Below, piece after piece: positions 9,192-55,275 of a stretch of DNA of 64,000 nucleotides. The notes below the pieces were generated by a model. It was not told the origin of the DNA. It saw nothing but the letters and a program-made list of their open reading frames with translations, and searched no databases. Each line of letters starts with the position of its first letter. The stretch's first letter is position 1. The translations under genes and the position numbers were made by a program. The stretch is from a virus (taxonomy: Duplodnaviria; Caudoviricetes), in the IMG/VR virus record IMGVR_UViG_3300025858_000019, positions 15,828 through 79,827 of that record. One strand, given 5' to 3'.

Positions 9192-9811
9192 GTTTTATTA
9201 TATTAACCGAGAACGATAATATTACAATCACTGATGATGCTTTAGCACATCCATTGATAAGGAAAGTCTATGATCAGGATAATACTTCAAATAAGGAATT
9301 ATTCTTAAAATACATATCGTATATCTATTGGGCTTATAATCCTAATGGCATTTATACTAACCTACTTCCGGAAAACAGAAAAGAAGTTGTCATTAAGATA
9401 GTAGCAAAAAACGATAACTGGAAAGATATTGAAAATGTTCCTGGCATGAAAGAAATGATTGACCTTTATGTTGAAACATCATATTCTCCCAATGAGATAC
9501 TTTATGAATCATGTAAGAGGGATATCGAATATGAACGTAAGCGCCTTTCTGAAATCCCTCCTACTAAAAAATTTCTCTATGAAGGATCTCATGATATCGA
9601 TGTATCAAAAGGAAAAACAAAAAAAATTGAATCTGTCTTTATAAAACAATGGATTGAAATAGACAATTCCGATGAAAAGGATAAGGCCTATAAAAGAATA
9701 TTAAATCTTTTTGAATACGAAGAAAAGATGAAAAACATAGTTGAAAAAGAACGTATCGATAAGGTTACTGGTAAATATGAACGCAAGTTTGATAAAAAAC
9801 AGTTAGCATGA
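9188..9811 (+). CDS. hypothetical protein, terminase small subunit candidate by position
   Basis: 207 aa, ATGA-coupled directly to TerL; no diagnostic motif recognised. Confidence 0.4.
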   Translation: MSFIILTENDNITITDDALAHPLIRKVYDQDNTSNKELFLKYISYIYWAYNPNGIYTNLLPENRKEVVIKIVAKNDNWKDIENVPGMKEMIDLYVETSYSPNEILYESCKRDIEYERKRLSEIPPTKKFLYEGSHDIDVSKGKTKKIESVFIKQWIEIDNSDEKDKAYKRILNLFEYEEKMKNIVEKERIDKVTGKYERKFDKKQLA

Positions 9812-14504: not shown

Positions 14505-14568
14505 TTTTATAAACTCACATATTCACCAATTTATATATTAATTTAGTAACCAAAAAAAATCAAATTCT

Positions 14569-15645
14569 ATGGATTTAGAAACAGACAACCAAGATGTCAA
14601 TGATGGCGCTGAAAATATTCAGATAGAACCATTCGACAAAGATGCTTTTATGGGTATCAAAGTAGATCCTATAAAGCAAGACGCTCCTGTTGATACAACT
14701 AAGGTCACTGATCCTAAAGTTATCGACAAGAACAACCCTCCACAAGCTCCCCCTCCAGCTACCGAATTAGATTATGCTTTTAAACATCTAAAAGAAGAAC
14801 TAGGAGAAGGGTATCAGGTCCCAGAAATTATTATTAAAGGTATCAATGAAAAAGGAGAAAAACTTTCTGAAAAAGAAAAGTATGAAATCCTGGTCGGTGA
14901 GATACAGAAGCATACCGATAATGGTATTGGCGATGATGAATTTATTAAAGAATATGTCACAGCTAAAAATGATCCTACCTTTGATTTTGGTAAGTTCATT
15001 GAACATCATAATCGGGAAGCAAACATCTTAGGACTCCCTGCAGATGATTTTCTTATATTAGCTTATACAAAACATTCAGAAGACAACAAGCTCAACTGGT
15101 CACAGGATGATATCAAAGCTCATATTGAAAGTTTGACACCTATACAGAAGTCAACAGAAGAATCCAGATTGAAGAATCAGGTTAAAGAAAATATCAAATT
15201 ACAAAAAGAACAAAGTTACAATCAGCGTCTTATGCAGTTTAAAGAGGCTTTTGAACAAGAGGAAACTGCAAATCAAAAAATTGTTACTGACTTTATTGAG
15301 AAAAACAAAGAGTCTAAAGCCTTCTTTGGTATTCCTTTTAGCGAAGCTGAAAAAAAGGAATTCTTTGAAGATCTGCCGAAACTTTCGGCCAGGGATTTAA
15401 AAACGATGAAGAACACATGGGATCAACTATTGCAAAGCGACGAAGATTTCATTCGGCTTACACCGTTATTATGGAAATACCTGAAAAATGATTTAGACTC
15501 TTCCGGATCAAAGATAAAGGAGGAACTAAAGAAAGATTTAGAAAATAGATTAAGTCCATCTCCGAACATTAAAACATCACGTTCTGCAAAGAATCCTGAT
15601 GAGTTTGATAGAGCTACGTTCATGTATGGCAAAAACAAAAAGTAA
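14569..15645 (+). CDS. capsid assembly/scaffold-like protein (conserved position upstream of MCP)
   Basis: 358 aa, acidic N-terminus, helical; lies between portal and MCP as in crAss-like phages. Confidence 0.6.
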   Translation: MDLETDNQDVNDGAENIQIEPFDKDAFMGIKVDPIKQDAPVDTTKVTDPKVIDKNNPPQAPPPATELDYAFKHLKEELGEGYQVPEIIIKGINEKGEKLSEKEKYEILVGEIQKHTDNGIGDDEFIKEYVTAKNDPTFDFGKFIEHHNREANILGLPADDFLILAYTKHSEDNKLNWSQDDIKAHIESLTPIQKSTEESRLKNQVKENIKLQKEQSYNQRLMQFKEAFEQEETANQKIVTDFIEKNKESKAFFGIPFSEAEKKEFFEDLPKLSARDLKTMKNTWDQLLQSDEDFIRLTPLLWKYLKNDLDSSGSKIKEELKKDLENRLSPSPNIKTSRSAKNPDEFDRATFMYGKNKK

Positions 15646-15669
15646 TCATTAATAAAAATTTCAATTAAA

Positions 15670-17112
15670 ATGAGAATTAAACCAGGACAACCCGATACAG
15701 TAGCACTGGAAAGTATTACCGGGCGTATGTTAATCGACATGGGAGTGAATGATCCCGATTATGTTCCGACGATGTTTAGTCTTTTCAAAGATGATGAATC
15801 TGAGATCATGTCATTGCTTGATGGCAAAGGACTGAAGACAAGTGGAGTAAACCATTCAACAAATAACAAACAGTATCGTACTGTAGGCTCTAATCACGTT
15901 ATGTTTGCTATTGGCGCTTCTGATCAAAGGAAACAGTATTTTAGAACTAACAATTCTGGTCTTACCTTCCGCGACGATGCCAACGGTTCAAGTATGCCGG
16001 GATTACATGGCCTTGCTTTTTACATCTATCTTAATTCAAACTGGAGCGGTTACAAAGAAGTTATCGAATTGGCTGACAACCAGACACAGCTTTATGTGTT
16101 ACAGGATCCAAAAGAAAAGAATGGTGTCTATGAATATAAGGTAAAACTTTTAGGCAATGACTACAATGCTTATGTTGATCCTCGACTGCTGGCAGAAAAC
16201 TATGAATGTACACCGGTGACGAACTTACACGAACATGACTTCTCAGAACGTGGTGTTGAAAAATATACTTCCGGTGGATGGGGCCATTCGTTCTTATCGT
16301 TACTCCGTTTTAAATATTCATGGTCAGGTACCGCCAAAGCAATGAAAGTATCTGGTAAATGGGTTGAAAATAACGGACAACGTGCATTCCTTGAAGTGGC
16401 CGAAGAAAAAATGATGAGAAGGGCTGCTAAACAGTTAGAATATCAGCTGGTATTCGGAAAATGTACTGTCACTGAAGATTTCAACAAAGTTTTTCTTACC
16501 GATGATGAAGGACGCGATATCATGTCAGGTTCCGGAGTTATGAACTCAGGAGATGGTGCTATCGACATACCTCAAAATCATGGATGGACAAAAGGATTTC
16601 TGGAAGCTTTCCTTGCCAATACAGACTCTTTCATTACCAAAGGCGAAGATGGTCACCGGGAAATTGCTATGAAGATGGCTCCTAAGTCTTATCTTTCTTT
16701 CCAACAGTTGATGTCTGATATGCGTATCGATCAGAATGGCAATATCGTAGGCACTGGCGCTGATAAAGGTATCGTTGACACTTATGGTTTCTATGAACTT
16801 GCCGGTCTTCGTATCATACCTTATCGTTCCTCATGGTTCTCACAGTCTAGCCGCCCGGGTATAAAACTTTCTGATGGTACCTATAGCAATGAATGGGATG
16901 CTATTGGAATTCCTTTGGGATTAACTACCGGTGGTGCTCGTGGTATTGAACTTATCCAGCTTCGCCCGATGGCAAAAGGAACAGTGGCCGGTATTGATGT
17001 TGGTGGTAGTATTGCCTCTTCTGTCGATGGTTCACAAACACATGTACTTTTCCAGATTGGTGTTATCAGCCAAATTCAGCCGCTGAGAATTTTCAGACCT
17101 TACTATTTATAA
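15670..17112 (+). CDS. major capsid protein (crAss-like, HK97 fold)
   Basis: 480 aa; size, position and segments such as NLHEHDFSERG..KYT and LRFKYSWSG fit crAss-family MCPs. Confidence 0.85.
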   Translation: MRIKPGQPDTVALESITGRMLIDMGVNDPDYVPTMFSLFKDDESEIMSLLDGKGLKTSGVNHSTNNKQYRTVGSNHVMFAIGASDQRKQYFRTNNSGLTFRDDANGSSMPGLHGLAFYIYLNSNWSGYKEVIELADNQTQLYVLQDPKEKNGVYEYKVKLLGNDYNAYVDPRLLAENYECTPVTNLHEHDFSERGVEKYTSGGWGHSFLSLLRFKYSWSGTAKAMKVSGKWVENNGQRAFLEVAEEKMMRRAAKQLEYQLVFGKCTVTEDFNKVFLTDDEGRDIMSGSGVMNSGDGAIDIPQNHGWTKGFLEAFLANTDSFITKGEDGHREIAMKMAPKSYLSFQQLMSDMRIDQNGNIVGTGADKGIVDTYGFYELAGLRIIPYRSSWFSQSSRPGIKLSDGTYSNEWDAIGIPLGLTTGGARGIELIQLRPMAKGTVAGIDVGGSIASSVDGSQTHVLFQIGVISQIQPLRIFRPYYL

Positions 17113-22416: not shown

Positions 22417-23041
22417 ATTTATCTCTCACCACGTCATACACGCGGACCTGGCAAGAAAGTTCAAAACAAAAACCTTTCATATCGATGATATTGAGGAATG
22501 GTGTTTTATTGCTGAGAGTCGTTATATCATAGATATTCGTGCTATGGTACAGATATTAGGTATTTCTCTTTCAGTAGAGTTTTTAGGTTCAAAACCTATC
22601 GCCTATCTTCCCTGTAACGTGATAAGAATATTGGATGTCTATCTTCCAAATGAAAAGAGAATACCCTATGTTCATAATGGTGCCTTTCTTTATCTTAGTG
22701 AGGACTTCACAGGAGACACTGTAATGCTTAATTATATCGGTAGCCCTATAGATGTCGATGGAGGTTCTCTTATCATTAAAGGTCATGAAAATGCTTGTGA
22801 ACAGTATTGCAAATTACAGGCCTTTGAAGAAGATTGGATTAATGGAAAGATAAATCAAAATGCCTATGTGGACTGGCAGAGAACTTTCTCCGGAATGATG
22901 CAGAATATCTCTCAGGATGTAAAAAATCTTGACATGGATAAATTGAACAAACTTGATATCATTCGTGGAAATATGATCCCGCGCATAGGCCGGTTAGTAT
23001 TATCACAAAATCAATTTTCTAGTAATTCAAATAGATATTAA
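22391..23041 (+). CDS. tail ring / tubular protein preceding the muzzle
   Basis: 216 aa; AYLPCNVIRILDVY...VMLNYIGSPIDVDGGSLII..HENACEQYC pattern; synteny. Confidence 0.65.
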   Translation: MADFVNNNKFISHHVIHADLARKFKTKTFHIDDIEEWCFIAESRYIIDIRAMVQILGISLSVEFLGSKPIAYLPCNVIRILDVYLPNEKRIPYVHNGAFLYLSEDFTGDTVMLNYIGSPIDVDGGSLIIKGHENACEQYCKLQAFEEDWINGKINQNAYVDWQRTFSGMMQNISQDVKNLDMDKLNKLDIIRGNMIPRIGRLVLSQNQFSSNSNRY

Positions 23042-23043
23042 TC

Positions 23044-26000
23044 ATGGGATTTATAATCAATAACTTCACTGGTGGATGTATATCGGATATCGATAAGATA
23101 AATGTTCAGAATAACGTCTGGACATTTCCTACTATGAACATACAGGTTTTTAATAAAAAAGGACAAGGACTCATCATCACCACTCATGCCGGCAACACTA
23201 AAATGAATTCCGGAGGAGGTATCATTGGCGATCAGGGAGAAGAATTTCAAACATCAGATGGCTTTATAATATTAGGAGCTTGTCAACATGATGGTATTGC
23301 ATATATTTTTTCCTATAACGATATTACAGGAGAAGGAGAGATTGGTAGTTTCCCTAGTCCAGATCCTAACACTCATATTATAGACAGAACATATCGGCCG
23401 TTGTATAATTATGACGATACACTATCTCCAGGGCAAAACCCGGGAGAATTTACATCAATACTATTCAACTTTGATTCGTATCATCAAATTGACTGTTTTG
23501 CCCGGGCAGAATATGATAAATCTGTCAACATATATTTCTGTGACTACAAAAATAATAATCGTGTCATAAACTCAGGTTTTGACAAAACTGGTGCGGTGGT
23601 AAACCATTTGTATTGTAGTAAAGATTTTGGTTCACTGATAAATCATATTCCCCTGGCAAACGGTCAAGTTACCTGTACACTTTTAGATATACAGCCAATA
23701 GGTATTTTGAAATACGGAAACTATTTTGTCTATGTAAGGTTTTGTACTAAAGACTTTAATGCTACACACTGGCTGGCTGAATTCGGGCCTTTTGCTATTT
23801 TTGATGGTGGCGGTCCTACCGATACGATAGGTAACACCATGGGTGGTGATTATAACAAAGAGTCGAATAAGAAGATCTCTATCAGGCTTAATAATGTTGA
23901 CACTACTTACTATTATGTAGAGCTAGCTATTGTAAGGTATTATTCTGATCAGACAGGAGTGATACTCTCTGAGTGTAAAAAGATAAATAATTATTATCCT
24001 ATTGCCGGCAATACTTTGTCTTTGGATATCATAGGTAATGAGAGTTCTTTCCCTTTTACACTTGAATTATTGTTACAAGAGCCTTCCCTATCCCGAATAT
24101 CAAAAACCCATGATCATCTTGATAAAAGATATTTTGGTTCCAACTGGAAAGACTTAGAAGTTCATTCCGATGAATTGGCAGCCTTTGCTCAACTTATTAG
24201 ATTGAGTTATGATGATAATGGGCCGTACGAAACACCTGCAGTAAGTTATATGGCATTACAGAGTGTCAATGATAATACGCGCGACTTAGATCCGATATAC
24301 AATGGCTATAAGGATAGTAAACTAATTTATCATAATGTTGGATATTTTAGAACTGAAACTTATTGTGTTGGTATCATAGCAAAACTTAAAAATGGCATGC
24401 TGTCTGAGGTATATCCTACCAAGGGTATCGATGCGTTGGGGTTAGATAAACTTCTTATTGCTAATGAATATAATACTCCGGGTTCTTTATTAGTGAATAC
24501 AAAAGGAATTATTAGGTTTCCCAGTAATTCTATTTCTCCTATGCTTAAAGATTTCTCACGCGGACAGATATTGGCGTTAGAGGTAGATTTCAACTATGCA
24601 ATGGGAAGTATTATTCCTAATGGATGGATTTCTGAAAATGTAGAAGGTTTTTATATTGTTCGTACAGAAAGAAATAAGAATCTTCAATATCAAGGAATTA
24701 TGTCGGCATGTTCGATGGCTTATACTGTTACACCGGGATTATCTGATTATACCTATTGGTATTCATTGTTTGATAAATATGGAAGTTTATATTATTGGCA
24801 TATACTTCAAGCCTATGGTTCGACTTATCAGGATAAATGGATAGGTTCTGCATGGGGGAAAAATATAAAATTTGGACAACCTGCCTATTGGAATACCGGA
24901 AATGGAATATATACTGAGGGAGTTGGTCATTGTTTTAATTTAGAGAGTGGAGGATGCACAGCAACATTAAATAAACAAAAAAATCATTATTATAAAGAAG
25001 CTCTTTTCCCTTTTTGGAGAGGTTATGCTCCTATGCACCATATTTGGACAGATCAAACGGGAGATAGTATTTCAGGTGGTGATGAAAGAGTACAGAACAT
25101 TAACTATCAGACACGATGGATAATGTTTCCTAATGCCTATGCTTTCTATTCTTTTGATTTTCTTTTCGAACAGATGAACAATATTGAAGATTGCAGGTTT
25201 CTTTATGACATAGCCAATACCTCTCCGATGTATTGGGATGCAGACGATCATGACCATGATAACGATTCAATTACATATAAAGGTTCATATCGTAAGGTAA
25301 TTTTTGATGATAGGAATGGTATCATGCCTCAGTTATATTTTGAAGATATCAAAACCTATAATTATTATCAGGATCAACTTAAAAACAAATCTCTAGACTG
25401 GATAAAATCAAAAATAGGGGAACCCGGAAATATTACTTATTCAAAATTTATTGATTCATCAGCAAAGTTCTTAAATGAAACAACAGACTGTTATTCTAAT
25501 AAACAAGAAACATTGTATTGGGCTCATAGACATGAGGGTGATGATAAATATTGGACAGTACGTTCAGCTTTAAGTCCTAAATATATTGGATTAGTTACTG
25601 ATGATTCAGAAATTAATGGAGAAGATCAATGGACTTATAAACCTCTGAAAAATTACAATCTTGATATCGTTGGATTATACAAAAAAGATCCTCATGCTAT
25701 CACTGATATCACAGTTATGTATAATATCCGGGATGAAAAATACTATAAGATTACCGACTTTATAGATATTACCACATTAACCGGAGCCAGGCTAAAACAG
25801 AATGTCTTTCGTGGAGATTGTTTTCTAGGAAGAAATTATTTCAAGCAGCGCTATTGGACTGGTAGTAACTTTGGTAGTGATGAGACAGCGGTTGGATATG
25901 ACACAGTAGGTGTCAATGAAGAAGAAATTGATCATATAAGAAGAGGTTATTATACTATGCGATTTACTCATGGGTTAATTATTGGTATTGTTACCGAAAA

Positions 26001-27375
26001 TGAAAACAATATTGCCCTTCGTCATAAAGGAGAGACAACAAGATTCTGGCCCCAGGCTGACAAACTTTATGATTTTGCTATCACTCCCTATAATACTAAT
26101 GGCATAGAGTCTCTACTACTTAATAAAGGATATAACAAAACATTGGGAGCAATGTTTTTTCGTCATTATAATTCGGACAAACCTTTTGACATTCAAGAAA
26201 GAAAAGTTAGGACATTTCATTCTGACAAACATGTTGATGGTTCTTTCATGGATATGTATCGTTCTATACTTCCTACTTACTATAAGGACTATGATATTAA
26301 GTATGGACAGATCGTTCGTACTATTGCCTTTATGGATAATCTTATCTCTGTTCAAGAAAATGCTATCATACAACATTCTGTTAATGAACAACAGGTCAAG
26401 GCTCCTACCACTGCAGGAGAGTTAGTAATGGGTATAGGCTCTATCCTAGCAGAACAAAGATTGCTACTTGCTGAATATGGCTCTCAGCATGAATGGAGTG
26501 TCGTGGCTGGCACCTTGGGTGTATATGGATGGGATTGGAAGAAAAACATCATCTGGTGTGTCAAAGAAGGTAAGACAGCAATGGGTAACTCGGTGTTAAG
26601 CTCTGCAAACCTCTCAACAACCAAAAATATAGAAAAAGAGATTTTTGACATTAAAGAAAATATCAACAGTTTATTTACAGACCATACGGAAATCCTTGAA
26701 GATAATCCAATAAATGGCAATGGCATCTCTGCTGGTTATGACTTTAAAAACAAGGTCGTATATTTTACTATTCAAAAGACAGATACCAAAGAAGGACTAC
26801 CCACTACAATCTATAAAAATACTATAGTCTTCAATGAACTGTTGGATTTCTTTACAGGAAACAATAAGTATGACTCTCCTCTTTATTTTGGTATCAATAG
26901 CGATTTCTTTATGGTGCACCGACCGGCGTTGTCTGCTACGAAATATATCCATATGGCAGATCAGCCAATAACAGATTATTCTGTCAATATGTTTTATAAT
27001 GTTCTGGAAGAATCTATTCTATCAGTGTTTGTAAAAGGACAAGAAAGTGATCCGGTTATCAGTAAGATTTGGGCTTCTTATGATATACACAGCAATGAAC
27101 AGGCTTTTGACAAGGTTATCTATGAGACAGAATTTCAGCAAAGCATACAAAGTCCTTTTGATTCTCTTGGCGTACAGTTTTGGCGAGATCCAACCTATGC
27201 TGAACATAAATGGCATTGTCCTATCAATGTAAAAACTGATGCAGAAGTTTATTCTGAATATGAGACAGACTCCGAATTAAGAGGAACATATTTGAAAGTC
27301 AGTCTTTATTATAAGAAGACGATACCGCAATACATAAAGAATTTTATCACATATTTCATTCCATCAAAATATTAA
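23044..27375 (+). CDS. tail muzzle / stabilisation protein (P22 gp10-like position)
   Basis: 1443 aa, beta-rich; begins INNFTGG..SDID, has a propeller-like C-terminal half ending LRGTYLKVSLYY...FIPS; followed by cargo genes. Confidence 0.75.
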   Translation: MGFIINNFTGGCISDIDKINVQNNVWTFPTMNIQVFNKKGQGLIITTHAGNTKMNSGGGIIGDQGEEFQTSDGFIILGACQHDGIAYIFSYNDITGEGEIGSFPSPDPNTHIIDRTYRPLYNYDDTLSPGQNPGEFTSILFNFDSYHQIDCFARAEYDKSVNIYFCDYKNNNRVINSGFDKTGAVVNHLYCSKDFGSLINHIPLANGQVTCTLLDIQPIGILKYGNYFVYVRFCTKDFNATHWLAEFGPFAIFDGGGPTDTIGNTMGGDYNKESNKKISIRLNNVDTTYYYVELAIVRYYSDQTGVILSECKKINNYYPIAGNTLSLDIIGNESSFPFTLELLLQEPSLSRISKTHDHLDKRYFGSNWKDLEVHSDELAAFAQLIRLSYDDNGPYETPAVSYMALQSVNDNTRDLDPIYNGYKDSKLIYHNVGYFRTETYCVGIIAKLKNGMLSEVYPTKGIDALGLDKLLIANEYNTPGSLLVNTKGIIRFPSNSISPMLKDFSRGQILALEVDFNYAMGSIIPNGWISENVEGFYIVRTERNKNLQYQGIMSACSMAYTVTPGLSDYTYWYSLFDKYGSLYYWHILQAYGSTYQDKWIGSAWGKNIKFGQPAYWNTGNGIYTEGVGHCFNLESGGCTATLNKQKNHYYKEALFPFWRGYAPMHHIWTDQTGDSISGGDERVQNINYQTRWIMFPNAYAFYSFDFLFEQMNNIEDCRFLYDIANTSPMYWDADDHDHDNDSITYKGSYRKVIFDDRNGIMPQLYFEDIKTYNYYQDQLKNKSLDWIKSKIGEPGNITYSKFIDSSAKFLNETTDCYSNKQETLYWAHRHEGDDKYWTVRSALSPKYIGLVTDDSEINGEDQWTYKPLKNYNLDIVGLYKKDPHAITDITVMYNIRDEKYYKITDFIDITTLTGARLKQNVFRGDCFLGRNYFKQRYWTGSNFGSDETAVGYDTVGVNEEEIDHIRRGYYTMRFTHGLIIGIVTENENNIALRHKGETTRFWPQADKLYDFAITPYNTNGIESLLLNKGYNKTLGAMFFRHYNSDKPFDIQERKVRTFHSDKHVDGSFMDMYRSILPTYYKDYDIKYGQIVRTIAFMDNLISVQENAIIQHSVNEQQVKAPTTAGELVMGIGSILAEQRLLLAEYGSQHEWSVVAGTLGVYGWDWKKNIIWCVKEGKTAMGNSVLSSANLSTTKNIEKEIFDIKENINSLFTDHTEILEDNPINGNGISAGYDFKNKVVYFTIQKTDTKEGLPTTIYKNTIVFNELLDFFTGNNKYDSPLYFGINSDFFMVHRPALSATKYIHMADQPITDYSVNMFYNVLEESILSVFVKGQESDPVISKIWASYDIHSNEQAFDKVIYETEFQQSIQSPFDSLGVQFWRDPTYAEHKWHCPINVKTDAEVYSEYETDSELRGTYLKVSLYYKKTIPQYIKNFITYFIPSKY

Positions 27376-32056: not shown

Positions 32057-35000
32057 ATGGAAGATAACACACCAAAAGGAAACGAACCTAAGTATTACGA
32101 TATGATAGGTTTGTCAGGAGATGGACTGACAGTACAAGATATTGCCAAAAATCTAAAAGGAAATGAATTTGTAAAGTTAAGGCCTATATCAGAATATACA
32201 AAACCAGCCAATGTCGATGATAATACATGGCAAACTATTTATGATAGTTACCAAGACCAGGCTAATTTTATCAACTACAACAAGAATGTAGCACATCAGG
32301 AAAAGACCTATTGGGATAAAAAGAATGAAGCCAGAGGATGGGCTCAATATCTTCCTAAATCAGTATTATATCCTACCAATGAGCGTGATAATTTTTATAC
32401 TTCAGCATATGAAGGTCATAAGCCTATTCTTTCTCAGGATGATATGGCTACCTTTTCCGGTAAATATTATACCTACAATCCGGTACAGGAACAATTAGAA
32501 CCTCATGATCTTACATGGACAGAACGATTTATAAAACCTATCCTTGGAGATAAGCTTGTTATAAAACATGATGATGCCGGCAATCCTTTTGTTCTTAAAA
32601 CATCGGCAACCGACTTCTTGCAGGGAGACAATATGTTGAGTATTTGGGGTAATCAAGATCTCTACAATGAATCATGGCTAGCTCCCGTGTATAAGTTTTT
32701 CAGCGGAGCTCTCTTTAATTCCGGACAAGCATTTCATCAGATGTCTCAGATATCAGGAATGCTTACTAACAAGGTTCTTGCTCCTTTGATGGAGATGGGA
32801 TTAAATATAGAAGGTGCCAATGATAAGACAAAGCAAAAAATATTAGGCAACTATGGTTCTAAGACTATGCCAGAATCAACAAGAGGTATCTTTAATATTA
32901 GTGGTGATCATGCTGAAGGAACACAACAGCATTTTCTGTCAGAAGGTACTAAGAAAGGTATGCTTGATGCTTTGCCGGCCTGGGATAACTATTGGGTAAA
33001 CTTTTGGGAACAGCTAAAGTATGAGGCTTCAGAAGATACAGAACAAAAAGGCTGGTGGGGATCTGGGTGGTCTTTTACAAACAACATGGCCGGAATGATC
33101 GGTGAGATGGTACCTCAGATGGTAGCAGCATTCTTTACCGGTGGTGGTAGCGCTGTAGCAACGGTAGGAGCAAAGCAACTTGTAAAAGAAGGCGTGGAGC
33201 AAGGGATTAAAGCTGGAGTTAAAAAAGGTGCTGCGTCATGGTTATACAAGGAGATGCTTAAGGCTCCTTCTATGGCAATAGGAACAATGCAGGCTGTTAA
33301 TGGTGTAGTACGTTCAGCACATCAGAATGGACTATCTCCAGACGATGCAGCTATTGTCGGTGGCTTGTCAATACCTATGGTATATGCTAGTGAATCTTTA
33401 TTAGGTTCAAAATATTTAGAAGCTGTCATGGGTAGAGAATTTGGCGCTGTGGCTACAGCTAGTGTCGTCAAGAACTTTGGCAAGGCTACTACAGGAAGTA
33501 TGAATGAGAAGATCGTTAGTGAGGGTATGAAGAAATCTATAGCTGAGATGGGTATTGATAATGTGAAAGCTATGCTAAAGACAGACAAAGGAACGACGAT
33601 GTTTATGTCCAGGCTATCAAAAAATATCTCTACAGTCATTGGCAATCGTTTCGTCAAAGGTTCTCTTTATGAAGGTGCTCAGGAAGCCACAGAAGAGACT
33701 GGTTATGGAATGGTGGAAGTACTCTATGATAAGTGGATGGCTGACAAAGATGCTGTCCCGGGACAAGGGAAATATGGTACACGTATCTTCTCGGAAGAAT
33801 TTGGCTCACGACTGTTGGATAATTTTGCTGCCGGAGCTATCGGTGGAGGTTTTTTCTCGGCTATGGGAGTTGGCAAAGACCAGATAGCAGACTATAAACT
33901 GAAGAAGAAATATGGTAAGAACTTCAAGACACTGGAACAGAAAGCCAAAGATGAATATGTTGACAGCGCTATCTTTGGAAATCAGTTTGACATTTTAAAA
34001 GAGAATGCTATCTTCGGCTGGCACAAAGGACTGAGTAAAGATGCTTTTGAGACTTTGGATAAACCAGTAGTTATTCCAGATGATAAGTTTGAATCCTGGG
34101 GCCTTAAACAAGGTACAGAGTTAAAGACTAAAGGAGATCTTTATCATTATATCTTTGCTATGAATGCAGAGACCAGAAAACAGGTGTTGGAAAACCTTCC
34201 TGTAGAACTTCGTAATCCGGAATTCACCTCAAAATATGTTGGTGCTCCGGAAGTTATCAAGGGAGCTTTTGATATTGCTACTGGTATGGCCGATGTAGCC
34301 ACCCTCATTCAAGAAATAGAACGTGATCCTGATATCTCAGAAGATAAAAAGGCAAAGAAGATTGAAGAGCTGAAACAGAATTTTGAGAACAAGAAGTCTG
34401 CTATGTCATATTTTACTGATGATTATGTCGATGCACAGGGCACTAAACATGACCATAGCAAGGCTTATTATGACCTGTTAACTACTAATGCCTTAGCTAT
34501 CGCCAATAATAAGACAAGGCTGAAAAAAACTGAAGCTGATGAGATCATTGCTGATATCAATAATAAGTCCGGAGATTTCCAGACTTTCAAAGCTGAACTT
34601 CAAAAACAGTTTGACAGCAAACAAAAAATAAGTGGCACCATTCAAGATGTCATGAGTAAATCGTCTGGTTTTATGAAGAGCCTGGGAGATATCGAATCAA
34701 TAGCAAAAGAAATTGATGATACTACTATTCAGATGAATAGACTCCCTGATGGAGATAAGAAACTTTCTTCATTGGCCGGAAAGAAAAATAAGCTTTTTAA
34801 GAAGATCTCCGGGCAGTTGTCGGCTATCGACACAAAGGTAATGGCTGAAGTAACAGCGTCATTGGGAGAACTTAACAAGATTATCGGAGAGCAAGGACTG
34901 AATAAAGAAGGTGTGGAGACAGACAATATCGTTTCCCTTTCAAATATATCCGGAACTATCGATAACATAAAAAATTCTATCCGTAGAGATTCAGAACAGA

Positions 35001-38000
35001 GTGAGGAAGATTATCTTGCATCTCCTGATATCACAGCTTTAGAAAAAAAAGGCTATCAGTCGTTATCTGAAGTTTCTAAAAACATTAGCCAGGCAGTCGG
35101 TGATCTCATCAATAATAATCCTCATGTACAGGATATCCTCACCGTTCGTTCACTAGGTCAGAAGAATTCAAAATTTATGACTACCGAAGAACAGGAGTCT
35201 CTAAAATATGCAAAAGGCAGGATAGAAGAACGCAGCGCGGCAGAAAGACCTTTCAACCTTGAAGAGATGTTGATTAAACTTATTACTCTTGGAGACAAGC
35301 TCAATGATCTGGAAGGTAAAAACTATTTAAAGTCATTCTATGAACACCTTAATAAAAATGACGAAGCACAAAAACAGCTAGAGGATATTCGAAAGGACTA
35401 TAAGAAAATCATAGAAGAATATGTCTTGCCGATAACAGAATTGGTACGTAATTATAAGACAAAGAATATCGCTCCCGGCACCCCGGAGGCTGCTTTTTTA
35501 ATGAGAGCTAAGACTTTCATTGGAGAGATCGACAACAAGCTTAATGCTCTCTATGGTCAGAATGTTAGTGATGATGCTTTATTAGAACAACAAATTGCTG
35601 ATATCTCCAACGAGATAGATAAGAATTCAAAACTCTTAAGAAGTATCGAAGCCATATCAAGCATAAAGTCAAAGAACAATGTTCCTGATGATATCATCTC
35701 TTTACATCCGGAATTGCAACTTACAGAAAATGAAAAGGATCTTCATAATGCCATACTATCATCATTCAGAAATGACCTGCAGAACTCCAGAGAATTTCAT
35801 AAGGTAAATAGTGTCACTAAATATAATCGTGAGTTTCAAAAGAAGAAGGCTGATATTATTGGACAGGTTTTAAAATTTGAACTTGCAAACCAAATGGACA
35901 ATCAGGATTTCTTTACCTACCTGATGAAAAACAAGGCTCTTTATGATATGTATGTCCGGGTTCCTGATCTTGTAAAAGACCTGGAACAAAATAAAGATGT
36001 CGACAAGATCGACGAGTATTACAATGTTATGGTGAATGTACAAGAAGCTTTTTTCCGTTATGTAAAAGAAAATGGTGGATCGAAAAAGTTAGAGGCTCTT
36101 AATGATAATGTCACCAGAAAAGTTAATGAATTTTGGTTGAGTTATCTTCAAGATAATAGGACAAACCAAAGCTATGATGTAAAAGCTACTTCACAGAACG
36201 TCATTACTCCATTCAGCAAATACGATAACTACATAAATACTATCGTTGATATTCTCCGGCCTTTAGGAGTTACTAACGCACAACAGTTATTCTTTGATGA
36301 TGCTATAATGATAAAGTATCTTGACTATATCAAAAGTGTTGGAGAGAACGACAAGGTATCAGGACTGGATTATGGGAAGCTACAACAAGGCCTTATGGTG
36401 TATATGCTCAACAGCATGCAGTCTTTCATTAATACTATGGGTACTTCTTCTTCATTAAAATATCATGACCTTATCTCCAACAAAGCTGAAGACGAATATC
36501 TTTCCTATACACAGAATATGGTAATGCGTCATGTCTATAGCGTACTTGATGGAGATAAAGCCTATTATAGTGGTGATTATCCATTGGAAAATAAGAGCAT
36601 GTCGGTTCCTATGGCCCAGGGATTTCCTCATGTAGATCCTAATACACAAGATATCGACGCTAGAAGATGGCATAAGCAGCCTAATAATACCAATAGTGAT
36701 GAGATAAAGTTCATGAATGGTATTCTGATACCCGGTCCTGCAGGAACAGGGAAGTCATTTTTGTTAAGTAAGATTGTGAGAATGATAAGGAAGATGGCGA
36801 CGGCTAAACAAAATCGTATTCTCATTATTGCTCCAACTAATGAGATGGCTGAAGGTATCTATGCAGGTTCAAAAAATGCTAACGAGACAGAGAAGGATAA
36901 ACTTATTCCTGACTTCATGACATTGAATGAGCTTTATGAAAAAGGTGTCTCAAAACAGTATGACTATATTATTATCGATGAGGTGGCCCGCTATCGTGAA
37001 GATAAAAAACTTGTCTTTGCGGAATATGTCTATGCTAATCCCAACACAAAATTTATATTCACCGGTGATGTCTTCCAGGCAACAGATCCTACCAGTGAAG
37101 AGTTTAAAAAGAAAGATGAGATGAGTGTCGTTCCCCAGGAATGGGTGCCTCATACAACACCTATCGATGAATCATTCAGAACTGATATTGATCAGGTGCA
37201 TAACTATCTGAATATGCTCTATCGTTCTTTTACTCCTACCATATCTGTTTCATTAAAACCTATCACTACTTATCATGACAGTTCAAATAGTATGGGTGTT
37301 CGTCAATATGCCAGCCCTCAGATTATCATAGAGAATTGGAGAAAAGATTCAGAAGAAAGCGTTTTGATATTCTCTAGTCGTAGTGAAGCATTTGAGTTTT
37401 ATAAAAACAATCCAGAACTGTCTCCGGCCAGCTTGAGAAATATTAGGTTTATCTATGCCATTGATAAAGATGGTGTCGAAGAAGAACTTAATGATCCTAA
37501 AAATGCTGGACAGTTTAAAGAGTTTGACAATAAGACTATACAGGGTGAACAAAAGGATAATGTCTATGTGGCAATAGAAAAACCCGAGACAATGATGGAG
37601 TTAAGCATATTCTATACAGCAGCTTCCCGGGCAAAAAGGTTTATCGCGGTACCTGGCAATAAGTCTGTTGAAGATGCAACATCTATCATTGACTATGCTG
37701 ATAATAACTCTTCTGGTAAGAAGACAGAAGCTGAACAGGGAGATATTATGGCAGAGCGGTTTAATAAGATGCTCCTTAGCATTGAAGACCTTAATAATAC
37801 AAGTAAGGTTATCGCCAAGCCGAAAGAAAAAGCTGAACCTAAACAAGAAACTCCAGAAACTCAACAGGAAGAAACTGAAGCTGAAGAAGAAAAAACAGAA
37901 CCTGTCAAGGTCGAAAAAAAGGTCAAAGAGCCTAAAAAGAATAAAGGTGTAAAAATTATCAAGGGTGATGAGATTGTGAATATTTCAGAATCTGTTATTG

Positions 38001-41000
38001 ATAAAAATGAAGATGCTAGTGAAATAGAACAGCCTACTGCTAAAGTTCCTGGTGACAATACAGCATTAAGATTTGCTGATGGACAGGCAACGCTAGGAGG
38101 TTTTGTTATTCCTTATGACGCAAAATTTGTAGGTAAGACTGGTGACCAGATATTGGGTACTCAGGAATATAAAAACCTGGCTGCTGAACGATATAATAAA
38201 TTAAAACAACATCTTCTTAATCCCAATGAAAATTTAAAGTTTGTCTTGAAAGATGCTGATATGATGGAGCTTGATCCAGAGACTCAGACATACAAGAGAA
38301 ACAAAAAAATGAAGATGTTGGTTCTCACCGATGGACTCATAGATTATGCAATCTATTATCAGCCGGTGCTAAAAGATGAAAATACTATTGATGATCTTAC
38401 CAAAGAAAATAAAGGAAAGATTATCAAAAAATATACAAAAGATGATAGTCCTAACTTTAAGGCTTTAAATGAGTGGAATGTTCACCTTGCCTCTATGTGG
38501 ACAGATCAGTCAGTGAAGATAAGAAGTATTGAATATGGCCGCCCAAATGTAAGGTATGAGTATACTATTGAAGAGGATAAGAAAAAATACACTACACGTT
38601 TTTTCTCTGAATTAATGGATGAGGTTTCTGGAAAGAATTTGCATGTTCTAATCCAGGATAATAGCTTCAAACTTCTCAGTAAAGGAAACTACGAAAAAGC
38701 GCTTATTAAAAAGGATATCATTAATGGATTTCCACATACCTTTATCACTATCAGGGATGTTGTTACAAACAAAACTTCTATTGTTGATGTTACTAATCGA
38801 ACAGTTACGAATAGTGATTTAAAAGGATATCTTACAGCATTATCCCAGGTAACGAAATTATCCGAACTTAATGAATCACAAGCTTTCCAATTTATATTAC
38901 AGAATGCAAAAAGGATAAGAAACTTTTATGGAGAAAAATTTTTCAAGGATCATTTTGATATTAAGTCTACCAGTACAGCTACTTATGTGTTCATTAAGTC
39001 AGAAACAAAATCTCCGGAAGAGCAGTTAGTTGAAAAGATAGGTCATATAAAACAGATCTTTCAATATATTTCTAAGGATTTAGATAAGCAACGTGCTTTA
39101 TTTGTTCCTTTCAGAGTTGACCAAAGAGGAGAGAAAGTTATTGATACTGACATTAATAAATTCCTTACCCGGAGTACTTCTATAGAACAACCCAATATTT
39201 ATGTGTCATTTCAAGATAATATTAAACAGGAGCCAAAATCAAAAGGATTAAGCAGTGTTCCTTTTATGAATAAAAGAGAAGACACAAAAATAGTCTATGA
39301 CCTGCAGGCACAGAAAGATTATTATGAGAGGGTTTTCGGAAAGCAGTCAGTAGCAAAAGAACGTTTTTCTATATCATCAAAAAATATCTTGTCTTTAGTC
39401 AATGCTGACGAAAGAGTAGATGAGCTTATTGCCAATGGTGAAGTAGTTCGTGATGGAGATTCTTATGCCTATGATGGAAAGAAATATACCAAAGAGGAAC
39501 TTCAACAGCAGTTCTATGTCAACCTTGATGAAACATATATGGGCCTTGTGAGAGGTCTTTCTACTTATCTGCAAGAGATCGATGGTGGTATAGCTAAAAA
39601 TGCTACTAAACATGAGGCGGTACATATTGCCTTTAACCTTTTGAATAAAAAAGAACGTGGCTATCTTCTCCGGGAAGCAAAAGCACAGATGCATGCTGAT
39701 GAAGGTATCGATGTTAATAATATCAGCAATTACGACGCAGAAGAATATATTGCTGAACTAAATGAAGGTAGGAAGAAGATTATCAATACCAAAGTAAAGT
39801 CAGCAAATATTGTCACACGAATATTAAACTGGCTAAAAAACTTGTTTGATGCAGTTCGGAATTATTACTATACTCCTGTTACTTTCCTTAATGATCTCAA
39901 TGAGGGTAAATTTATAAATCGTTACAACGACCTTCTGGCTATTCAGAACAATGAGGTTCATGGGATGGGCGACAGGATTCCTTTTACAAAAGAGATGCTG
40001 GATGCTTCTGGATATATCCCGGCTGTCACTACAAAGAAAAAAGGTATGCTTAACACTACTGAATTAGTTAGAGAGTTGGGTGGTACTACCATATTAAATC
40101 ATGTCCGGGCACAAATAGCTCGTAAAATGCGTAGCTATTCTGCATATAGTACCATAAAGGATATCAATGAAAGTCCTTATCAGGATCTGAATATCACTCA
40201 ATCTATCAATGCAGCACGTACAGAATTGAATATCCAATTAGAAGAGATGATCCTTTTAGGAGAACGTTCCGGAGCCAAATTGTTTACAAAAGATGGCGAT
40301 CGTATCGTATATCATAAAATTCGTGACTATGAAAACATTATTGTTCCGGAAGGAGAAACAGAAGAGAAATTCAAAAACACTCTCTTGACCTATCAGGCAG
40401 TACATAAGACTATCAATAATGATAGGATAATGAAATCTGTTCTCCATACATTAAACATAAAATATGATACGAATGAGAACTCCCAGCGTGAGGCTTTTGC
40501 AGGTTTTAACTGGAGTAGTACCATGGAACAGTACAAATACATGGATCCAGACCTTAAAACATTAATGACTACTATTCCCTATTATACATGGAGAGTAAGC
40601 AAAGATGGTGTCATTAGTATTAATGAGAATGATTCCATGAATTATCATTATGACTTTGCAAGGATGATGGATGTTAATGTCCTCAATAATGCTTTGTTGT
40701 CTGTCGCTAAAGATACCATTGAAATTATGCAGAATACCCCGGGAAAATTTATGGATATTTTCTTTGAAGTGTTATTGGATAAAATAGCTTTAAGTACTAT
40801 CAAGGGAGAAGTAGTTACTGATGTGACACCAAATATATTACTTTCTTTTTATAATGATTTTGGCCGTTCCTATTTAGAAGATAGGAATCATGTTGGACTA
40901 CATAATATCTTATCTGTAATACAGAACAAATTTGATACTGCCAAGATAGTTTCTGAAATAGAAAAGAAGCGTTTTTATATAATAAAAAATATGATCACGT

Positions 41001-44000
41001 CTTTTGAAGCTCATTATACCAATTCTATAAGTCCAAACTACATTAAGATAGATACGGATATTGACTGGAATGGAAAGAAGTCTTTTGAAATAAAGAACCA
41101 AACGCGGTCCGAGATACAGGAATTTAAAGAAGACTATCTCAATGGTGTTCGTTCTATCTATGCAGGTGGAAAACCAAAAGAAGGATATTCCCGGATGTTG
41201 ATTGGCGGTAATTATAATGGTAAGAGAAACAATATTGTTGCAAATTACAATACGGATAATATTGAAACTTTTGAGATTGGTACTGGCCGTTATAATACCA
41301 ATGAAAAGGAGTATATGTTTCTTCCAAAAAATTCTCCACGATTGATAACTTTTAATGGTAAAAATTTTGAGTTTGTAAAAGAGAATAATAGCACATTAAG
41401 CATTCGTGATATCAGGACAGCATTCCATAATATAAATATGAATGTTCCTGAGTCGGTGATAAAACTTATTCTAAGCGGTAAGAGAAACACCGGCACATCA
41501 AATAACATATTCCTACCTAACAATCAAGATCGTAACAGGGATAGAGGAAAGACAGCCTTAGCCAATCTATTAGGATATATGTATCTCACATTGGCAAACA
41601 ATGCTAATGCTAACAAACCTTTTACCGAAGATATCAAGCGTTATATTGGTAATATTTCTGTTGATAAAGACATCAGCGAAGAGCTTTCGAATATTAATGA
41701 TGAACTAGAGGGTTTAAATAGTGATCTTGCTTTTGGTAGCATGGAGCCACTGGAAGAAGTTCGGAGTAAGCAAAGAATAGAATATCTTGTTTCCTTAAAG
41801 AAAGAGCTGGAAGACACTCCTCAGCTGCTAAATTTTTATAAACAGATAACCGATCTTGCCGAAGTTCATTATCTTGTCAATGCCGGAAGCCGGAGACAAT
41901 ACTTTCGTTCTGTTAATAATGAAAAACACCCAAAGACAGTATTGTCAGATTTTACTTCAAAGATGTTCCGCAGTGGATTAAAAAATGCAAAGGGATATAT
42001 TAATAATGAGATACGTAAAGCAGAAGACAATAATATTGAGTTAGGCAATAACCCTATCATTGAAAATGGAGAAGTCAATGTTCCTATTTTTCACACCAAT
42101 GTAGAAGATGTTATTTTAAGGGAACTCACCGGGAAAAAAGGTCGGTTACGTATCAGGGAAAAAAGTGATTATAATGATCAGGATTATGTTAACGATGCCA
42201 TTGATAGTTTTAATAATTCCATTGAAAAGAATAGTACTCTCAACAGGAATACCAACAAGCGATATAATATTTTTTATGAACCGTACGGTGATAGAAACAA
42301 GATCTCAACATTTAGCCTGATAACGAAGTTAGGTGTTGACAATATCGTTGAATATACAAAAGATGGTATGACTATCAATGATAGTTTTATTAATGACCTG
42401 ATGCAGAAAAGTATTGACTATCGTTTGCAACAGGCAAAGATAGTGTTGGCAAAATATATGGCTTTTGAAAAAGATGGTGTTACTCCATTCTTTCAACAGA
42501 AACATTATTCCAGCAAGATAGCCAATATTGAATATGATCTGGACAAGATCTTTGACCAGTTCAATATCGATGGCAAGCCAGAAGCTATCAGCGCTATCAT
42601 AGAAGATATCAATGATAACATCGCGGGCCAGATGAAGAAGATGAAAATGACTGCAGAAGAATTTGCTATTTATATGCAGACGTTAGGTATCAACGAATTT
42701 ATGGGGTTTTCCGCTGAAAGTGATTTTGTATTAAGGGATATTCAGGTTGGCAATACTATTAAATCTAAAGTATTGGTTGGTAAAGCTGTATTCAATCCTG
42801 AAGATAATATCTTTACATTGGATAATGTTTCTAGCTGGATCAAAGCTAAAAACTTCAGTGGAAAGAATAAGGTAAAGAATATGTCTATTGTCAGGAACTT
42901 TATGTTCATGGAGCAATATAAAGAACTATGTCAATACCTTAAGTCCATTGAACATAAGATGCCTAAAAAAGTAGCTGACGCATATGGTAGTTGGAAGAAC
43001 AAATATATCAAAGTCAGAAAGACAGAAAAGGGCGCTGGTTCTATAGAAAAACAAATAGCCGGGAAAGAAAGTTATGAATGGAATAAGTTCTATGAATCCT
43101 TTATGTATATGACATATCTCTTAAATGATAGTGTCTCTATGCTGACAACCGGTGATGCTACCAGCTTTAAAAATCCATGGGATAAGATGATCAGGAACTC
43201 TCAGGCAGGTGCTGCCATGGGAGTAGCCTTTCAGACAGGAGAAGTCAATACCCTTCCAAGGTATATGCTTGAAACAAGGATAGAAGATACCAAGATAAGC
43301 TATGACCTGGCTTCCTTTCTTACAAACAAACCCTGTAATGAAAAAGAATACAATAGTACCTATTTCGTTAATGTAGTCACAGCTATCTTCATGTCAAACA
43401 GCGTAGGAAATGGTATCATAGATCCTACTAAGGGAGTAATGAAATTAGTAGGCACCGGGATAGATATGAGGACCGGCCGTAACAATACCAGGAAACTTTC
43501 CGTTATGTCCATTAATCATAATGTGGTAAAGAATTTCTCATGGGGTAAACAGGTTCATGATGAGCAACTGGCTTCATTAGGAACTTTTGAAAAGAATGGC
43601 ATGGAATTGTCATTCCTTGATTATTTCTATCAGCAGATGGATAATGGTAGGTCTTTCTATGAAGCAGCACAGGATGTTGCCTATGAGATCATGGAGGTAC
43701 GTAGGAAGAGTAATATGCAGATAGATCCTCTTTCAACTTTTAACAGCATTATCGTTACCGGTGAGGCTATAAAGAACGAGAGGGGTATGCTTAATTATTA
43801 TGCTCCTGATGGAACACAACTTAACATGAAACATCTAAAAGCTCCCGGTACTTATAGTTCTCTTTTAAAGGCTAGTTTTGATATGGAGAATTATATTGTC
43901 CAGCAAGATCCGGTTAACGAGTCGAAAGAAGTTACTATGATGTCGCAAAGCAATGACCAGATAAATTATATCGACAAAGATATTGCCAGGGAAATACATG

Positions 44001-47000
44001 AGGCTAATGCTGAAAAGTCAAGACTTATCATAAAAGATATTGCTAGCAAACTTAATGGCTCCAAGGCATTAAAATTTGCCAGGAGAGAGGCAAGCAGAAA
44101 TATAGAAGATTGGGGTCGAGACACTGAGATGTTGCATATGATCCAATCAGGACTTTCTAATGTCAACCCTGTTATTGCCTATGAACTAATGAAAACTGGT
44201 ATGAGTATGTTCGATCGTGGTGTTCGGATGTCAAGGTATGGTACTAAAAATGTCCAGTTCCCGGGTAATGAGATAAATATCTTCAAGGTTTATGATACAT
44301 ATACTGAGGGTTTCTTTTATGTACAGAATGATGATTTCTATAGTAAATATGATAAAAACCCACGATATAAAAATCTTACTAAGAATGGAGTACAGGAAGG
44401 ATTGAATCATTATAAGATTTATGGCAAGATAAAAAATGATAGTGGCGAAGATGTAGAAGTAGATCTGGAAGAAATGCTAGGTAAGGACAGGGGTGATAGT
44501 ATGGCATATACAAGAGAAGAACTATTGGCTATGGCAACAAGGATTGAACCGGCACAGATAGTAGTTCCAGCTCATGTCTTTGAAAAGTTTATAGAGCCAA
44601 GAGTCTCTAATATCTTTAAAGATTTACCTAAAGATTATACATTAAGTGACTTGTTTACAATACAGATAGATGGTCCTGCCGGTGGGAAGGTAGATGTCAA
44701 TGTGATGTCAATATTTAATAAATATGAAGATCCTCTTGATGCTTTTGATGAACTAAGAAACTTATTGGAAGATTATATCAATGATAAGGAATTATTGAAA
44801 GAATATGAGGAAAATGTGTTGAATTATTTCTGGTCTTTGAATAAGATGTTGAATACTTTCAGTGGCCGTATTCCAGGTACCGCTCCCTCTTCTTATTTTA
44901 TAGGAAAGATTGTAGGTATCGATCATGATGGTGGCCGTATCTATATCCCTTCTAAAAAGAATACACTTGATAACTCCGACTTTGACATTGACCAGTTGAC
45001 AACCTATCTCTACGATATTATCAACGATAACGATATGTTATACATTGAGGGAGATAGTGACAATGCGGAGATGAAGATATTATTGATAGATAATGATAAC
45101 CTTACCAGGTTACATAAAATGTATTCAGATCCGAAGAATCTTGTAAAGATATTATCACCTGTAGCTGTAAGTCCAGAACTTAAAGAAAAGATAAAAGAAG
45201 AAAAAGCTGGAAAAGCTTATTTTGCTAATGATATTCGTACCGGAGCCAAAGTATTCTATGAGTCACATCTAGGAAAGGAGTTGGTATCACATTTTGCTTC
45301 GTCGATGTCAGCAGTTTTGAGAACCTTACAAATGCAAAAGGCAGAAGATTTTCCTGCATTGCTATACAATGATAGTGACATACAGGAACGTTTGTCAGTG
45401 ATATTACAAAGCATAACACAGACTCTTCAGCTGTCAGTTGATAATGCAAAGCATGCTGGACTGGAGGGATTAGGTATCAATCAGGAAACGTCAAGCCTTG
45501 TAATAGCTCTAACTGTCAGCGCCTATAATATCAATAACATTGCTGAGATGCTGAATAACCCCTATGTAAAATCTGTAATAAGAAAGATTTCAAACAGCAG
45601 AGATCCCAATAGTGTACAACTGAACATTGCTGAAGAATTTTCCATGGCAAAAGAAAACATTGAAAAGAATGCCGATGAAGATGTTTTTGCTGAAAGAATG
45701 GAAAAAGAAAAGGTTGCCGTAGAAGAGAAACTTGCATATTTCAAATCCAGAAAAGAACAACTCACAATAGTACAAGATGATGAAAGTTCTTTTGAGACAG
45801 CTTATAACACCCTTGATGTATTAGATATGCTTGAACAGGCCGATATCGACGCTGAACGTTATGGCATTGAACCTAATGAGGGGTATGAAAAGTTGAAGAA
45901 GGAAATCAAAGAAGAAATTAAAAATAGTAACTTCGAACAGAAGAAGGAAAAATATCTTAAGAAATTCTTTGACCGCTGGATCCGTTATTATTCAGAACGT
46001 CTTAATGATAAAAATTGGCAGACTTATGTCGATGAGTCATGGAGTAAGATAGATAATTCACGTAAGGCTATTAATACTATACAGGAAGCTATATGGTTAT
46101 CAGCAGGCATCAGGAACTTTTCTACAGTATTATCTGTAAAAGATAGCACAGAACCCGGAGCATGGCCTATGTTTCAAAAATTAAGAAATATAGAAAAAGC
46201 TTTGAATGTAACTTTAAAAGGTTTCTTGTCCGGACAGGATTATGATCCTAAAGTATCGGAGATGAACCTTCGTTATATGGAAGCTAAAAAATTGAGTGCC
46301 AAGTCTTATGTTGATGTTACACAAAAACAAATCAATAATGACATTACGAAAGTCTTTCCAATACTTTCCAGATACAATTTAAATCTTACCGGACAACCTG
46401 GTGTATCGTCAGCTATATTAAAACAAGCATTGAAGACCAACATTCCAGTAAAAATATTCATGGGTAAAGGTTATTTAAGAAAAGATCTACAGGGTAATAA
46501 TATCTATTCCGGAGAACATTTAGGTTCATTGGCGGATATGCATGAAGATGTTGACAATATCAGCAACATAGAAAATTTGAAGTCAAAGATCGTTCTCGTC
46601 GATGGAAAATATAAAGCTCCTGTTTCTGAAGGTATCAAAAATTCAGATATTGTCGTGAACTTTTATTCCGAAGACTCATTTGAAAAAAAATGGGCTTATA
46701 AGAATAAGAGAGTGGTGGATATCAATATTAAAGATGGTTTTGGTAAGATCGCTGAAACACTTCAGAGAGAACTGGACAAGGCGGTAGAAGAATATAAATC
46801 TATTGTTCCTAATAAAGAACCGACTATATTTATCAATACAGAGTTCATCACCACGACCAATCGTATAAAGAAATCTCAATATGAGATACACAAAGAACTT
46901 AATGATAAAGCTATGGAACAGCTTAATGTTCCGGCACTGGTAAGAGCTAATCCTGATATCATGCAATATGTAAAAATATTCGACATGAAGATCGACTATC

Positions 47001-55273: not shown

Positions 55274-55275
55274 TT

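Follow-up and report, generated by a model that had tools for sequence, protein, structure and literature searches.

Genes for RNA polymerases (RNAPs) of up to about 6,000 amino acids (aa) are a hallmark of the crAss-like phages (review, PMC10136315), and fusion of the three crAss RNAP-block proteins into a 'huge polyprotein' is already in the literature. The question with crAss-type virion polymerases is how they begin transcription on a double-stranded genome, and gp66 of phage phi14:2 is the only enzyme studied. Recombinant gp66 transcribes single-stranded DNA (ssDNA) and denatured DNA efficiently and native double-stranded DNA (dsDNA) poorly; QDE-1, a structural relative of gp66, depends on both the QDE-3 helicase and RPA (bioRxiv 10.1101/2020.03.07.982082). 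A helicase tied to a polymerase-bearing protein is a natural candidate for the missing template-opening activity. Here we describe a superfamily 1 (SF1) helicase domain that is embedded in a giant open reading frame (ORF) of a distant crAss-like phage. The stretch analysed, called the window, comprises 64,000 nucleotides and corresponds to bases 15828-79827 of the 79,827-bp IMG/VR virus record IMGVR_UViG_3300025858_000019. The record is linear and estimated to be 91% complete, and the phage is known from metagenomes only.

Seven SF1 motifs were found in one frame and in the correct order at window positions 36734-37636, which correspond to aa 1560-1860 of the ORF at 32057-49723 on the plus strand (Table 1). 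Such an ordered seven-motif match is far beyond chance. A preliminary description of this DNA had listed these motifs with intact catalytic residues and had placed the domain at aa ~1540-1870. All of the motifs were recovered, and alignment to the best relative (P0002, see below) gives aa 1551-1882, close to that extent. Four Pfam families exceeded their own gathering scores on the domain, namely AAA_19 (6.7e-8, 33.2 bits, gathering score 25.1), AAA_11 (5.2e-7, 30.1 bits, gathering score 27), AAA_30 (8.2e-7, 29.4 bits, gathering score 27) and Viral_helicase1 (1.4e-6, 28.7 bits, gathering score 21), and UvrD_C_2 matched weakly across motifs V-VI. PHROG 325 'Dda-like helicase' matched at 5.5e-9. 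The NCBIfam models were headed by RecD2 (3.2e-8; 32.2 bits vs a cut-off of 500) and then RecD (4.2e-7; 28.9 bits vs 310), and the Pfam PIF1 score of 13.9 was below its gathering score of 25.9. We consider it very probable that aa 1551-1882 are a genuine SF1 helicase module within a cargo polyprotein of crAss type.

We analyzed how this domain is conserved among its relatives. An exhaustive search of 1.84 billion representative proteins with the helicase domain gave 17 matches at E <=1e-3. The best relative, P0002, is a 5,905-aa metagenomic protein that is present on several JGI and Logan contigs and carries the helicase domain at the same place in the chain (aa 1507-1846; BLASTP E 1e-25, 25% identity to the window domain). 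The two giants are collinear over five blocks (N-terminus, helicase, zincin, middle block and polymerase region). Within the helicase motifs, 16 of 18 key residues are identical and 2 of 18 are Ser/Thr swaps. A further relative, P0003, is a stand-alone protein of 417 aa. Six catalytic residues, namely Lys of Walker A (K1566), Asp of Walker B (D1641), Gln of motifs III and V and Arg of motifs IV and VI, are kept in the window domain, P0002 and P0003. The identical 5,888-aa protein was present on 4 contigs from 3 sources. Relatives of the helicase were found neither by megablast or tblastn in 50,697 phage records nor by IMG/VR scans with the helicase domain and with an alignment. A phmmer search against the PDB gave only P-loop noise, a word-indexed protein search at similar length recovered the query alone, and a degenerate DNA pattern for P0002 had no match in metagenome or viral contigs.

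Such extreme divergence, with only 17 matches in the exhaustive search, might point to a dead or purely structural helicase remnant that is kept as a spacer in a very large cargo protein, and the shortened accessory region and the modest confidence of the structural model (both described below) fit this idea. Decay would, however, lose the residues for ATP binding and hydrolysis, all of which are kept across the ~25%-identical pair and P0003, and we regard a remnant as highly improbable. Because the catalytic residues are kept across a pair of only ~25% identity, an active enzyme is favoured, and at the level of sequence the domain is intact and under selection. Window positions 36707-37702 thus probably encode a working SF1 helicase/translocase motor.

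To place the domain among known folds, an alignment of the window domain with 13 helicases from the exhaustive HMMER search was used as input for an AlphaFold2 model. The model is of moderate confidence (mean predicted local distance difference test (pLDDT) score 63.6) and displays two beta-alpha-beta cores (model residues 14-129 and 206-325). The absence of two RecA-like domains from a structure had been named beforehand as evidence against a helicase; the moderate-confidence model shows two. The top Foldseek matches were helicases only, nearly all of SF1, with RecD as the best (E 1.4e-11) followed by SLFN11, Dda, nsp13, Dna2, Sen1, Upf1 and the tomato mosaic virus helicase, all at probability 1.0. 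VIA-align superimposed the model on RecD with a Z of 12.4 over 248 aligned residues spanning both domains. Other helicases scored within about 1 Z of RecD, and so did terminase ATPases, which matched one domain only. Because the VIA-align scores were tied, the assignment of an SF1 subfamily by this method was dropped: the model defines the fold class clearly but does not separate the subfamilies.

HelD-RNAP and Sen1 structures were among the structural matches. Together with the covalent link to an RNAP-motif protein in two lineages (see below), this would suit a HelD/Sen1-like transcription accessory factor that releases or recycles the polymerase or removes RNA-DNA hybrids and does not supply template. 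However, dozens of other helicases score as well as HelD and Sen1 (Z within 1), HelD-specific insertion domains were not seen, and the sequence matches favour DNA helicases of the RecD2, Dda and Pif1 type. An accessory factor of this kind is quite improbable in our view.

The preliminary description had proposed a phylogeny against RecD2, Dda and Pif1. In our maximum-likelihood tree the window domain forms one clade with P0002 and P0003 (support 100/99) on long branches, separate from the RecD-like and Pif1-like helicases and from those of the Suoliviridae, which are introduced below. A 231-aa ORF of the same clade, P0011 (L005 165-860, on an ENA contig of 991 bp), starts at motif IV; it begins two bases past an upstream truncated ORF and could be a split or frameshifted helicase copy.

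The members of this clade share a short interval between motifs IV and V, which measures 121 aa in the window domain, 119 aa in P0002 and 103 aa in P0003, compared with 146-243 aa in all comparison helicases of the RecD, Pif1 and Suoliviridae types. In RecD2, Dda and Pif1 this interval is the site of the SH3-like 2B domain. Pfam SH3_13 had no match in the helicase domain, and neither a beta-barrel nor a pin was seen in the model, where the loops of this region have low pLDDT. Because the interval spans only 121 aa, a full-size 2B/SH3 accessory domain appears to be missing. The earlier term 'complete' therefore holds for the motif set and both RecA-like cores and does not extend to the accessory region. 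From these sequence features we call the domain a minimal SF1 motor, nearest to SF1B and outside the RecD2, Dda and Pif1 families.

We next considered the protein that carries the helicase. The giant ORF is uninterrupted and accounts for 22% of the 79.8-kb phage genome. At aa 4307-4312 it has the hexapeptide SDFDID, for which 3.9e-4 occurrences are expected by chance and which is identical to the catalytic loop of gp66 and of the giant proteins of the Suoliviridae phages cr50_1 and cr118_1. An R.P motif precedes it by 38 aa; in five Crassvirales polymerases this distance is 39-40 aa, and the spacing matches that of gp66, gp50, cr50_1 and cr118_1. P0002 keeps both D.D.D and R.P unchanged. The zincin region is similar to the C-terminal HExxH region of crAss001 gp47 (aa 2151-2218; BLASTP E 2.5e-5, 38% identity over 78 aa), and the HExxH motif is conserved in P0002. 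By sequence, this homology ties the giant ORF to gp47, a protein found in virions by mass spectrometry.

The genomic surroundings point the same way. The nearest relatives of the terminase large subunit are Crassvirales proteins with 24-28% identity, and three small genes separate the crAss muzzle gene from the giant ORF. This order parallels that of crAss001, in which gp44 is followed by the cargo genes gp45/gp46 and then by the RNAP-associated gp47, gp49 and gp50. The cargo and RNAP-associated proteins of the crAss001 gp44-gp50 region were found in virions by mass spectrometry, and all of them are believed to be in a partly unfolded state on ejection (PMC10172136). The giant ORF is thus the polyprotein of a distant crAss-like phage. 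Its earlier designation as a virion RNAP protein is well supported by context and motif, that is by SDFDID, synteny and the gp47/gp65-type zincin, and is not matched by significant homology of the polymerase core.

Table 1. Features of the window that are discussed in the text. Residue numbers are those of the giant ORF.
Feature	Residues (aa)	Window position (nt)	Strand	Basis or remark
Terminase large subunit, portal and major head genes, crAss-like		9808..17112	+	PHROGs 6681, 6547, 11589
Ring protein gene		22391-23041		PF24228
crAss muzzle protein gene		23044..27375	+	Pfam crAss_MUZ PF25731, 5.7e-25
Giant ORF		32057..49723	+	5,888 aa, 672 kDa, uninterrupted; crAss-type cargo/RNAP-block polyprotein
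N-terminal block	14-720	32096..34216	+	BLASTP vs P0002, E 3.5e-42
SF1 helicase domain	1551-1882	36707..37702	+	Boundaries by alignment to P0002
Motif I, GPAGTGKS	1560	36734-36757	+	
Motif Ia, LIIAPTNEMA	1589	36821-36850	+	
Motif II, YIIIDEVA	1637	36965-36988	+	
Motif III, FTGDVFQ	1668	37058-37078	+	
Motif IV, IDESFRT	1703	37163-37183	+	
Motif V, KTIQGEQKD	1826	37532-37558	+	
Motif VI, FYTAASRAK	1852	37610-37636	+	
Lys/Glu/Pro-rich low-complexity linker after the helicase	about 1915-1965	37799..37951	+	Read from the translation
Zincin-like HExxH module	2513-2589, HExxH at 2519	39593..39823	+	Motif, P0002, BLASTP to gp47
Putative RNAP catalytic loop	4263-4318	44843..45010	+	R.P 38 aa upstream of SDFDID
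PD-(D/E)xK-like motif region, C-terminal	about 5764-5848	49346..49600	+	Pairwise match to P0002, E 0.005

We wondered whether the combination of helicase and polymerase is peculiar to this phage, as the preliminary description had implied. The catalytic region of gp66 matches proteins annotated 'DNA helicase; VOG0377' in Suoliviridae reference genomes. Two of these, QOR58058.1 of cr50_1 (4,774 aa) and QOR58373.1 of cr118_1 (4,946 aa), carry HExxH near aa 1,700 and SDFDID near aa 3,150-3,200, and they end in a full SF1 helicase, for which Pfam AAA_30 scored 5e-21 in cr50_1 and 1.7e-25 in cr118_1 and UvrD_C_2 4.6e-11 in cr118_1. As in the window, one giant ORF of the RNAP block joins HExxH, the SDFDID loop and a complete SF1 helicase. 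The implied novelty of the fusion was therefore overstated: such fusions are present in reference Crassvirales genomes, and the window protein is a divergent case of modular giant virion polymerase proteins. No discussion of the helicase domain of crAss giant proteins was found in the literature searched. We also noted that Suoliviridae giants with RNAP motifs are annotated merely as 'DNA helicase' (L007 2770-17094, L008 4506-19346, L009 22-14123). Read with table 11, the two large ORFs of cr124_1 have 41 and 53 in-frame stops, a pattern that points to stop-codon recoding, and a Walker A motif is found close to where the second one begins.

The two fusions differ in architecture. The domain order is HExxH - RNAP - helicase in cr50_1 and cr118_1 vs helicase - HExxH - RNAP - nuclease motif in the window, so that the helicases lie at opposite ends of the polyprotein. 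The Suoliviridae helicase is of an ordinary Dda/RecD-like kind, and its IV-V interval measures about 243 aa compared with 121 aa in the window domain. Similarity between the two is limited to the Walker A region (E 1e-4 to 0.01), and they fall into separate, strongly supported clades. This fits independent captures as well as very old shuffling, which the tree does not separate.

The N-terminal ~700 aa are the best-conserved block between the window giant and P0002 and contain stretches rich in Gly, Ala and hydrophobic residues. By analogy with the role proposed for crAss001 gp45, these stretches could serve in membrane insertion or as a channel; the N-terminal 1,500 aa displayed no similarity to phi14:2 gp67. 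The helicase lies in the N-terminal third of the chain, after this block, and might be anchored by the N-terminal region near a membrane channel, where it would reel in the leading DNA end at the expense of ATP. In support of such a genome-internalisation motor, crAss cargo proteins are believed to leave N-terminus first, before the DNA, and to form the channel (PMC10172136), and a minimal motor with a short insert in place of 2B suits translocation. On the other hand, SF1 motors track single strands, and there is no sign of a dsDNA-pumping geometry or of membrane anchoring. The Suoliviridae helicase sits at the extreme C-terminus and would be the last part to exit, and phi14:2 and crAss001 inject without a helicase. 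We consider an internalisation motor unlikely.

Behind the helicase follows a Lys/Glu/Pro-rich linker, presumably flexible to judge from the translation. Both giants also contain a PD-(D/E)xK-like segment. In P0002 it stands directly after the helicase (aa about 2094-2145, ~270 residues past motif VI), where it weakly matches crAss001 gp47 aa 1753-1806 (E 0.01). In the window protein it is C-terminal, and the module seems, from the sequence comparison, to have moved within the polyprotein. The segment raises the question of a helicase-nuclease resembling a small RecB/AddA or Dna2, which would trim or protect the genome ends, compete with RecBCD or attack host DNA in end-processing or counter-defence. 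Injected polyvalent proteins often bear helicase or nuclease domains for conflict with the host (PMC5512222). The nuclease call is nevertheless weak (E 0.005 in a restricted pairwise search, no match to Pfam or NCBIfam), and the motif is ~3,900 residues away from the helicase in the window protein. This explanation moreover overlaps with the supply of template to the polymerase, as resection itself yields an ssDNA template. On balance a dedicated helicase-nuclease appears rather unlikely.

The most likely role of the helicase, in our view, is to supply the ssDNA template on which a crAss-type polymerase works. The 672-kDa polyprotein is probably packaged in the capsid and probably enters the host before the DNA or along with it. 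The helicase, by its predicted activity, would then act on the incoming phage genome and unwind it from an end or a nick, possibly assisted by the PD-(D/E)xK-like nuclease, which may resect the incoming DNA. In this way the duplex would be turned into the single-stranded template that is preferred by QDE-1-like crAss polymerases, and early transcription could start without host factors. By analogy, this idea fits the published biochemistry of gp66. The pairing of helicase and RNAP recurs, since the RNAP-motif protein of the Suoliviridae is fused to a helicase of a second SF1 clade with no demonstrated relationship to the first. The preliminary description had offered DNA internalisation, ssDNA template supply and the stripping of host proteins from incoming DNA as possible roles. 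We hold template supply only tentatively and would place it a little below an even chance. The alternatives were ordered as internalisation motor, helicase-nuclease, HelD/Sen1-like factor and inactive remnant. Template supply can also be extended to a broader idea, namely that QDE-1-like polymerases cannot open a duplex and that for this reason the giant polymerase proteins of separate crAss-like lineages acquired distinct SF1 helicases, by independent capture and at different positions. Here the stripped motor and the PD-(D/E)xK nuclease would together act as a 'resect and transcribe' machine, able to begin infection with no help from host factors. This extension is speculative and unlikely.

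Several observations weigh against template supply by the helicase. Some 2,700 residues separate the helicase from the polymerase loop, and the two would no longer be coupled if the polyprotein is cleaved, as may be the case. Packaging in the virion we infer from synteny alone. The short IV-V interval and the absence of an evident pin argue for a translocase rather than a processive unwinder, in a helicase model that is itself of moderate confidence. No helicase was found in the RNAP block of phi14:2 (gp65-67) or crAss001 (gp47/49/50); polymerases of this class therefore do not strictly require one.

Further points against it concern the polymerase. The best BLAST segment against gp66 lies on the SDFDID loop with E 0.065, and a second collinear segment has E 0.58. 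Hidden Markov models (HMMs) built from 2 or 5 crAss polymerase cores did not score above shuffled decoys, hhalign of the giant pair against gp66 and gp50 gave a probability of 4.5%, and the AlphaFold2 model of aa 3900-4800 was poor (mean pLDDT 36.3). The polymerase core also had no match by tblastn against phages (E up to 1), by phmmer against the PDB, in PHROGs (E up to 10) or in a protein search for shorter relatives, and the ESM Atlas returned only unnamed viral clusters with scores <=0.86.

A separate gene for a DnaB-type replicative helicase lies outside the window (L002 6454-7869, minus strand). Because the phage has this enzyme, replication does not require the helicase of the giant ORF. 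In a scan of a few replication-side ORFs, no DNA polymerase was seen. Downstream of the giant ORF and overlapping its end by 7 nt, an ORF of 1,493 aa (window 49717-54198) had no Pfam or PHROG match and could, by its position, encode another RNAP-associated cargo protein. Beyond the cargo block, an 845-aa protein (window 55267-57804) carries three Ig_7 (CHU_C-associated Ig-like) domains (3.9e-23) and is probably a fibre or surface-binding protein.

The fusion recurs at two positions and involves at least two helicase clades with no demonstrated relationship, and the template-supply reading is directly testable in vitro. The window copy is an extreme case, a minimal motor with all catalytic residues at ~25% identity, and helps to define what the fusion needs. 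In other respects it is a further example of a module added to giant phage cargo proteins of an already known family.

Among described systems, the RNAP blocks of phi14:2 (gp67-gp66-gp65) and crAss001 (gp47/gp49/gp50; PDB 6VR4) resemble that of the window in their position after muzzle and cargo genes and in the SDFDID loop with R.P about 38-40 aa upstream. The window zincin is homologous to crAss001 gp47, and the summed mass of gp47, gp49 and gp50 (694 kDa) is close to the 672 kDa of the window giant. In contrast, the similarity of their polymerase cores to the window protein is not significant.

A functional analogy is offered by the QDE-1/QDE-3/RPA system of Neurospora, in which a two-barrel polymerase structurally related to gp66 transcribes ssDNA and relies on both a helicase and a protein that binds ssDNA. 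Unlike the window protein, this system is eukaryotic, and its helicase is a separate protein without covalent fusion. QDE-3 is a RecQ-type helicase of superfamily 2 (SF2).

The polyvalent injected proteins, such as the P1 DarB methylase-SF2 helicase (Iyer et al., 2017), are likewise huge multidomain proteins that are delivered with the DNA and combine zincin-like peptidases, helicases and nucleases acting early. Their helicases differ in being mostly SF2 enzymes paired with methylases, with rare UvrD-like SF1 helicases in actinomycete plasmids, and that survey describes no RNAP-linked SF1 helicase.

The window domain resembles RecD2, RecD, T4 Dda and Pif1 in its seven motifs, its two RecA-like domains and its best family scores and structural matches, and to this extent the label 'RecD/Dda-like' from the preliminary description holds loosely. 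It departs from them in scoring far below the equivalog cut-offs (32 bits vs 500 for RecD2), in forming a clade of its own, in leaving no room for a full 2B domain and in residing inside a 5,888-aa chain. Compared with all of these systems, what is new here is a deeply divergent SF1 helicase in its own clade, positioned N-terminal to the polymerase, with a short IV-V interval and a PD-(D/E)xK-like motif alongside.

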